From NCBI GenBank assembly GCA_964492735.1, contig CAZBLE010000002.1:135-64134 (forward strand): a stretch of DNA of 64,000 bases. Direction: 5' to 3'. The position numbers and the translations under genes were made by a program. The DNA comes from an uncultured Gammaproteobacteria bacterium. GTDB taxonomy: Bacteria; Patescibacteriota; Patescibacteriia; UBA9570; XYC2-FULL-38-9. This document shows positions 25,872 through 25,948 of this stretch, piece by piece (position 1 is the stretch's first letter; each line of letters starts with the position of its first letter). Below the pieces are notes generated by a model. That model was not told where the DNA came from, did no database searches, and was given only the letters and a program-made list of their open reading frames with translations.

Positions 25872-25948
25872 TGGTACTCCCTCCTGGACTTGAACCAGGG
25901 ACCGCAGAGATATAAGCTCTGTGCTCTAACCACCTGAGCTAAGGGAGC
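25872..25948 (-). tRNA. tRNA-Ile with anticodon UAU (an AUA decoder); CCA is encoded
   Basis: Reverse complement: GCTCCCTTAGCTCAGGTGGTTAGAGCACAGAGCTTATATCTCTGCGGTCCCTGGTTCAAGTCCAGGAGGGAGTACCA. This is a clean cloverleaf. The anticodon stem CAGAG/CTCTG closes the loop CTTATAT. The overall sequence is close to bacterial tRNA-Ile2. Confidence 0.7.

Follow-up and report, generated by a model that had tools for sequence, protein, structure and literature searches.

A tRNA gene in the window (the whole stretch of 64,000 nt of DNA analyzed here) raises the question of whether its host reads the isoleucine codon AUA with an anticodon that is encoded as UAU in the genome, dispensing with TilS and with its substrate, tRNA-Ile2(CAU). 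Telling AUA from AUG is, within the standard code, the only discrimination at which a plain U34 is expected to miscode, and this is why nearly all bacteria depend on TilS, an essential enzyme that has also been considered as a drug target and a marker for the domain Bacteria. In the literature searched, about a dozen species are natural exceptions, and the gene described here adds one more.

TilS is present in 98.18 % of bacteria and has been called evolutionarily stable (PMC6063277). Isoleucine tRNAs with a UAU anticodon were described from nine bacterial species in three clades (PMC3575796) and, designated Ile3(UAU), from 17 bacterial genomes of Bifidobacterium, Mycoplasma and Neorickettsia (PMC8450103), and a preprint from 2026 still uses the wording "rare cases" (10.64898/2026.02.03.703510). 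The rarity of bacterial UAU decoders, as claimed in the initial annotation of this locus, is thus in line with the published counts.

Origin and gene content of the window

Comparison of the FtsH protein from the window with 185,579 GTDB species genomes identified a single close relative, from MAG CALKUP01 (locus L012; 88 % identity). The next matches, with 54–58 % identity, include MAGs labelled Patescibacteria, Parcubacteria, Kerfeldbacteria and Saccharibacteria, and a block containing gyrA, a gene for an MBL hydrolase, rpsA, ftsH and a gene designated orf320 is common to the window and to most of these MAGs. Because of these FtsH relatives and of the common block, we treated the host as a member of the Patescibacteria/CPR. 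The window contains diverse housekeeping genes (trmD, rpsP, the genes for RNase III and an SMC protein, nusB, tpiA, gyrA, rpsA and ftsH), as well as genes for an L-lactate dehydrogenase and a copper nitrite reductase, and many ORFs that could not be assigned to any family.

The tRNA-Ile gene and its encoded UAU anticodon

ARAGORN predicted four tRNA genes in the window, including a tRNA-Ile with anticodon tat that spans exactly positions 25872–25948 on the minus strand. The coordinates and the loop sequence CTTATAT had been correctly given beforehand, with the strand left unstated. The gene also matched the Rfam model RF00005 with 64 bits (E = 1.4e-11), the gathering score for tRNAs being 29. 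It is 77 nt long and includes the discriminator A73 and an encoded CCA, and its assignment is supported by ARAGORN, Rfam, covariation and its match to ileX of Escherichia coli. The 5′ part of the minus strand reads GCUCCCU-UA-GCUC-AGGUGGUUA-GAGC-A-CAGAG, and is followed by the 3′ part CUUAUAU-CUCUG-CGGUC-CCUGG-UUCAAGU-CCAGG-AGGGAGU-A-CCA. As read directly from the sequence, the anticodon loop is C32-U33-U34-A35-U36-A37-U38 (25910–25916, minus strand), so that the anticodon U34-A35-U36, at positions 25914–25912 of the minus strand, is genomically encoded as UAU.

These segments form a textbook cloverleaf, with an acceptor stem (GCUCCCU/AGGGAGU) that includes a G1-U72 pair, a D arm (GCUC/GAGC), an anticodon stem (CAGAG/CUCUG) and a T arm (CCUGG/CCAGG). 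Folding of the single sequence recovered the acceptor stem, the anticodon arm and the T arm, with a z-score of −1.6 that is unremarkable, as is usual for tRNAs. An identical copy of the gene is found in a Logan contig from run SRR12487046 (L001), which need not be an independent data set.

AUA is a rare but used isoleucine codon

A set of 31 genes from the window, all of them except orf320 supported by a family match, contains 45 AUA codons in a total of 12,787 (3.5 per 1000), corresponding to 5.2 % of the isoleucine codons; the frequency rises to 5.3 per 1000 when all the long ORFs from the window are considered. Essential genes are among those that contain the codon, such as ftsH, rpsP (coding for S16), rpsA, ddl and tpiA. 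There were no ATA, AGA or AGG codons at strongly conserved columns, defined by at least 15 orthologues, and we thus resorted to a pairwise comparison with L012. In this small sample, ATA from the window was aligned with isoleucine in six out of eight cases, with leucine in the other two, and with methionine in none. AUA usage had been proposed as a check on the initial annotation, and these results show that AUA is a rare isoleucine codon that is nevertheless used in the genes of the window, which implies the need for a decoder.

Isoleucine identity and relationship to tRNA-Ile2

A search against 5,426 complete genomes of E. coli returned a single match with E ≤ 1e-3, a gene annotated as tRNA-Ile with 81 % identity over 67 nt, which occurs in a median of one place per genome. 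The one listed match that we inspected is situated between mug and nfeF and has a CAT anticodon, and is therefore ileX, the gene for tRNA-Ile2. The closest E. coli tRNA is thus tRNA-Ile2(CAU), which bears out the proposal of an Ile2-like tRNA made from the sequence.

In an alignment of 14 sequences, comprising 13 homologous UAU tRNAs and one CAU relative, all the sequences share A73, the U12-A23 pair and A37, and 13 of the 14 have C4-G69. We take these four features to be identity elements for IleRS, as they are for the E. coli enzyme. By these features, the tRNA from the window has an isoleucine-type body, and its charging with isoleucine is predicted. The 13 UAU tRNAs all have a U at position 34, where the single CAU relative has a C, and the simplest inference is that the gene originated from one of the tRNA-Ile2(CAU) type by a change of C34 to U34.

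The UAU tRNA is conserved downstream of ftsH in CPR-like relatives

In another 15 CPR-like loci, ftsH is followed at a distance of 0.1–3.2 kb by a tRNA-Ile(UAU) gene; of these loci, 11 are from GTDB genomes (L003–L007, L009–L012, L044 and L046) and four from metagenomes (L052, L053, L055 and L056). The order gyrA-MBL-rpsA-ftsH-orf320 is kept in most of these 15 loci, and in eight of them an orthologue of orf320, identified by tblastn, closely precedes the tRNA gene. The initial annotation had considered the UAU tRNA a trait distinctive of this organism, and this part of it does not hold, since the gene is syntenic in many Patescibacteria/CPR-like lineages. The UAU tRNA gene does not keep a constant orientation among the other CPR-like loci. 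Additionally, in 12 of the 15 related loci there is a gene for tRNA-Leu(GAG) at 1.9–7.4 kb from tRNA-Ile(UAU), constituting a second conserved tRNA landmark; this gene was recorded in L003–L010, L044, L046, L053, L055 and L056.

Sequence conservation among the 14 aligned tRNAs was complete for the D arm and for U33, A35, U36 and A37. Cloverleaf pairing is maintained in 99.7 % of the cells of the alignment, with compensatory double changes at 15 out of 21 pairs, and none of 500 shuffles reached the observed values. Even between the window and L012, the tRNAs differ by a compensatory change, from A-U to C-G, in the anticodon stem. This strong covariation of the stems argues for purifying selection on tRNA function, and against a pseudogene or an assembly error. 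The tRNA-Ile(UAU) at 25872–25948 is a real, conserved tRNA gene.

Organization of the ftsH block in the window

The anchor of the syntenic block, ftsH (22690–24822, plus strand), codes for a protein of 710 aa, according to the gene call on the Logan contig, that matches TIGR01241 with 801 bits. A mechanical ORF call places its start further upstream, at a TTG codon (22531–24822, plus strand), and is probably too long, overlapping an ORF of around 190 aa; the gene call on the Logan contig L001 sets the FtsH start at 22690. Upstream of it, rpsA (20634–21899, minus strand), coding for ribosomal protein S1 and identified by family match and synteny, is a member of the conserved block. This gene runs opposite to ftsH in the window and in L012 (6453–7637), whereas both genes point the same way in the other CPR-like loci with rpsA within ca. 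1.5 kb upstream of ftsH. The interval between rpsA and ftsH (21900–22689, plus strand) is the place of (gmk/cmk)-tilS in relatives that bear TilS, and it contains here a single, unrelated ORF of about 188–195 aa (22056/22077–22643, plus strand), which matches no Pfam or NCBIfam family and has a match, with 43 % identity, in L012 only.

After ftsH, orf320 (24904–25866, plus strand) codes for a conserved protein that fills the space up to the tRNA slot, with orthologues of 23–70 % identity at the same position in nine related loci. The copy from the window did not match any Pfam or NCBIfam family, and the orthologues from L090 and L091 showed a weak match to DUF7544. The tRNA-Ile(UAU) gene has a divergent partner, a tRNA-Val(GAC) gene (26051–26127, plus strand) identified by ARAGORN and Rfam. 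The 102-bp spacer between both contains a sigma-70-like promoter, TTGACA-17-TAGACT (26000–26028); for the minus-strand tRNA-Ile gene no match to a sigma-70-like promoter was found in this spacer, which is uninformative for CPR.

The Ile(UAU)/Val(GAC) pair (25872–26127) is inverted as a unit with respect to the relative with 88 % identity, L012 (13154–13942): the order in the window is Ile (minus strand) and Val (plus strand), with the spacer of 102 bp, whereas in L012 it is Val (minus strand) and Ile (plus strand), with a spacer of ca. 635 bp. Immediately after the pair, the region 26134–28548 (plus strand) contains genes for a class I SAM methyltransferase, a LOG/TIGR00730-family protein and an RluA-family pseudouridine synthase. 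The methyltransferase (209 aa) was found in the window and in L012 only, and the gene for the pseudouridine synthase lies a few kb from ftsH in most CPR-like loci, with either tilS or the UAU tRNA.

Distribution of tilS and of the UAU tRNA

Directly upstream of ftsH, ORFs with a PP-loop motif (SGGxDS) were found in loci from Fibrobacterota, Armatimonadota and Bacteriovoracaceae, as well as in a single-cell genome of Patescibacteria (L008). The products of these ORFs are TilS as judged by NCBIfam model TIGR02432, with scores of 145–195 bits and a cut-off of 93.6. Locus L023 (Streptococcaceae) was discarded as an example of the arrangement tilS-hpt-ftsH, because it has proS upstream instead. Six-frame segments of at least 40 aa were then searched, with filters disabled, using an HMM derived from 19 TilS sequences. 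The model did not detect tilS in any of the six frames of the 64-kb window, where the best hit (E = 4.1) lay outside of the ORF of around 190 aa, nor in any of the loci bearing the UAU tRNA. A possible origin of this ORF as a relic of TilS was rejected, since there was no match to the TilS HMM in it. Likewise, there is no CAU tRNA in the 64-kb window or in any UAU locus. The loss of tilS proposed to accompany the UAU tRNA therefore agrees with the local evidence, from the 64-kb window and from the conserved site of tilS.

Short TilS proteins, of up to ca. 330 aa, are encoded in the CPR-like loci L008, L018, L061, L063, L065 and L071. In 11 CPR-like loci tilS ends 66–237 nt before ftsH, and none of the 11 has the UAU tRNA; these represent every tilS that we found in the CPR-like clade (11/11 directly upstream of ftsH), and the same site is devoid of tilS in all 16 UAU loci. 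In total, the 36 CPR-like loci, several of which are near-duplicates and are not phylogenetically independent, comprise 16 with the UAU tRNA only, 11 with TilS only, none with both and nine with neither, five of these nine being truncated contigs. Both states occur within the CPR-like clade on a rough neighbor-joining tree of FtsH.

A database search with TilS from L008 retrieved thousands of similar short TilS proteins, and the organism names among the matches listed were Moranbacteria, Parcubacteria group and Patescibacteria. TilS is kept in other CPR lineages, with source names that include Moranbacteria and the Parcubacteria group, and in one locus labelled Saccharibacteria. The genomic context was obtained for three of these matches, from L088 (a contig of 1.27 Mb) and L090–L093. 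The block is organized as gyrA-x-MBL-rpsA-gmk-tilS-ftsH-orf~320 in L090–L093 and as rpsA-cmk-tilS-ftsH in L088, and the tRNA slot downstream contains tRNA-Val(GAC) alone in the former and tRNA-Pro in the latter, with no UAU tRNA. There is also a tRNA-Val(GAC) downstream of ftsH in L008, where neither a UAU tRNA nor orf320 was detected.

In three of the TilS-bearing loci, tilS is closely preceded by a gene for a tRNA(CAU) whose D arm is of the Ile type, in the strand opposite to tilS-ftsH (L063, 6232–6308; L065, 2054–2130; L071, 6449–6525). This tRNA is presumably tRNA-Ile2, the substrate of TilS, and its adjacency to tilS suggests a pair of genes for substrate and enzyme that is linked to ftsH. 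Outside of the CPR, a MAG of Bacteriovoracaceae (L047) also shows a tRNA(CAU) gene (5412–5488) upstream of tilS-ftsH and in the opposite strand. Nevertheless, tilS was not adjacent to ftsH in other groups sampled, for example in Planctomycetes and in some loci labelled Gammaproteobacteria; since tilS is often unlinked to ftsH in other phyla, its local absence is suggestive, but not conclusive.

A model for AUA decoding and its alternatives

We consider it probable that the tRNA from the window is a functional UAU decoder, of the kind described in Mycoplasma mobile, that has replaced TilS and tRNA-Ile2(CAU) in this CPR-like lineage, and it is likely that the genome of this organism as a whole lacks both tilS and tRNA-Ile2(CAU). 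The encoded U34-A35-U36 would pair directly with the rare AUA codon, making unnecessary the conversion of cytidine to lysidine by TilS. Among the relatives, the conserved block exists in two alternative states: in one, tilS immediately precedes ftsH and the UAU tRNA is missing, and in the other, that of the window, there is no tilS and tRNA-Ile(UAU) comes after ftsH-orf320. Charging would depend on an IleRS tolerant of U34, expected to have Arg or Lys at the position of W905 in the E. coli enzyme or to be of the eukaryote type, as deduced from M. mobile and from a suppressor strain of Bacillus subtilis (PMC3575796, PMC3919564); a search for ileS found no ORF of at least 700 aa with the HIGH and KMSKS motifs in the window or in the CPR-like loci retrieved. 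The misreading of AUG would presumably be kept low by some mixture of weak U34-G pairing, dependent on the tRNA and the ribosome, competition by tRNA-Met and the rarity of AUA.

Among the closest known systems is that of M. mobile (Taniguchi et al. 2013, PMC3575796), which also has an encoded TAT anticodon on an Ile2-type body, uses AUA as an isoleucine codon and is devoid of tilS, a gene that is missing at least locally in the organism from the window. In M. mobile U34 is unmodified, IleRS has an arginine (Arg865) at the position contacting the wobble base, and its own ribosome reads AUA and not AUG (PMC3575796); all three features were shown experimentally. Also, M. mobile is a single species in the Tenericutes, whereas the tRNA occupies here a conserved syntenic slot in many CPR-like lineages. 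In Bifidobacterium and Neorickettsia, which are scattered clades, a UAU tRNA likewise takes the place of tRNA-Ile2(CAU) and TilS (PMC3575796, PMC8450103), and these two genera feature a eukaryote-type IleRS. A mechanistic precedent for a bare-U34 tRNA-Ile that works without TilS comes from a B. subtilis suppressor of a tilS deletion, carrying a G34U change in tRNA-Ile1, in which this tRNA bound AUA strongly and AUG weakly, and the strain grew normally with a misincorporation of about 1e-3 (PMC3919564). That case, however, is a laboratory mutation of tRNA-Ile1(GAU), and the gene from the window is a natural, ancient allele resembling tRNA-Ile2. The canonical system of TilS and tRNA-Ile2(CAU), based on lysidine, does the same job of decoding AUA with the same type of tRNA body, but with an encoded C at position 34 instead of U, and no TilS was found in the window or at the conserved position. 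Finally, a wobble base derived from U, and not a modified C, also reads AUA in the tRNA-Ile(UAU) of Nanoarchaeum equitans and Korarchaeum and in the eukaryotic psi-A-psi tRNA-Ile, although these belong to other domains, and positions 34 and 36 must be pseudouridylated in the eukaryotic tRNA.

The UAU tRNA might instead be a second, parallel reader of AUA in a genome that keeps tilS and tRNA-Ile2(CAU) elsewhere. There is a precedent for such redundancy in Lactobacillus plantarum and L. casei (PMC3575796), bacteria with genomes of free-living size that have an encoded TAT anticodon and keep tilS, and our view is limited to 64 kb of the genome, with TilS being common in some CPR groups and its linkage to ftsH not being constant in other phyla. 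In contrast to these lactobacilli, the conserved tilS site of the window is without tilS and no related locus has both systems; the invariable position of tilS in the CPR-like loci that have it, its absence from that site in 16 out of 16 UAU loci and the lack of a CAU tRNA from the window and from all of these loci also argue against redundancy, which we regard as unlikely. A non-functional copy, or one recently acquired with a mobile element or phage, or else an error of sequencing or assembly at position 34, has nothing specific in its favor beyond the fact that a tRNA gene with an unusual anticodon sometimes turns out to be a pseudogene or to be carried by a phage. It is strongly disfavored, to the point of being very improbable, by the location in a housekeeping block, the deep conservation in CPR, the compensatory changes in the stems, the invariant UAU, the identical sequence on a Logan contig and the intact 3′ CCA.

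Specificity for AUA could also be conferred by a modification of U34, either pseudouridine, as in the eukaryotic tRNA, or a nucleoside of the xm5U/cnm5U type; this would be a variant of the main mechanism with the same tRNA identity, and we deem it unlikely. Of the 16 UAU loci, 13 have a gene for an RluA-family pseudouridine synthase at 0.8–7.6 kb from the tRNA (the exceptions being L011, L012 and L052); the class I methyltransferase gene comes immediately after the tRNA pair in both the window and L012, and cnm5U is present in archaeal tRNA-Ile(UAU) mutants (PMC3895270). Nevertheless, an RluA-family gene is also near ftsH in the TilS-bearing loci L008 (a tblastn match) and L088 (a PseudoU_synth_2 gene), so it is unspecific to the UAU state, and it scores best as a generic rRNA enzyme of the RluA/RluD type. 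We therefore discarded it as evidence on U34, and likewise the methyltransferase, which is confined to the window and L012. Moreover, both bacterial tRNAs studied in this respect, from M. mobile and from the suppressor strain of B. subtilis, have an unmodified U34 (PMC3575796, PMC3919564). A decoding logic like that of M. mobile, in which U34 may be unmodified, is what we propose for this tRNA.

Possible extension to the Patescibacteria/CPR

On balance, we lean slightly towards a broader scenario, in which a large part of the Patescibacteria/CPR would be without lysidine: tilS would have been deleted from an ancestral arrangement rpsA-(gmk/cmk)-tilS-ftsH, and a tRNA-Ile2 with a C34 to U34 change, situated in the slot after ftsH-orf320, would decode AUA. 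If true, this clade would greatly exceed in size any other natural one lacking TilS, contradicting the description of this enzyme as near-universal and evolutionarily stable (98.18 %; PMC6063277). The exception could then be the norm in a whole sector of the CPR, with a synteny of two states, either TilS or the UAU tRNA. Such a scenario would also offer, in one and the same block, many independent contrasts of TilS versus UAU with which to examine the adaptation of IleRS and the ribosome to a bare U34. Its confirmation by whole-genome scans would call for a revision of the estimates of the universality of TilS and for changes to the annotation pipelines that expect Ile2(CAU) in CPR genomes, and would provide comparative data with which to find the changes in IleRS and the ribosome that make bare-U34 decoding safe. 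Although encoded-UAU tRNAs are a known kind, their breadth in the CPR appears to be unreported in the literature searched, where we found no paper that links tilS, lysidine or AUA decoding to the CPR or Patescibacteria; other journals may differ in this respect.

Other features of the window

To our knowledge, A34 is very unusual in bacteria outside of tRNA-Arg(ACG), and inosine in the split AGN box would misread AGA, an arginine codon. The window contains a tRNA-Ser gene with an encoded ACU anticodon, hence with A34 (55537–55624, minus strand), which was called by ARAGORN and matched Rfam with 59 bits; it has the loop UUACUAA, a long variable arm and no encoded CCA, and is identical on the Logan contig SRR12487046_5737 (L087). 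The codons AGA and AGG are almost unused, with nine and three occurrences, respectively, among the 12,787 codons from the window. AGU is more frequent than AGC in the window and in L012, and the opposite holds for 11 of the 12 remaining CPR-like loci with tabulated codon usage. We also looked for this tRNA in relatives by means of its MFS neighbor, whose homologs (65–78 % identity) are in different contexts without any tRNA.

A gene for tRNA-Ala(UGC) (62076–62149, minus strand) is solitary and unattached to an rRNA operon. At the beginning of the window there is a partial 16S rRNA gene (1–979, minus strand) corresponding to the 5′ two-thirds of the molecule; its 979 nt cover positions 1–1014 of the Rfam model, and this visible part shows no insertion. 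The region 47917–53760 contains a copper-related cluster with genes for a protein with a CopZ-like domain, a P-type heavy-metal ATPase, the copper-containing nitrite reductase NirK (TIGR02376, 305 bits) and the L-lactate dehydrogenase, and a DsbD-thioredoxin fusion is encoded at 44436–46193. The gene at 11220–15674 (plus strand) codes for a protein of 1,484 aa that combines a right-handed beta-helix (NosD-like) with fibronectin-III-like segments and is probably a large surface protein.
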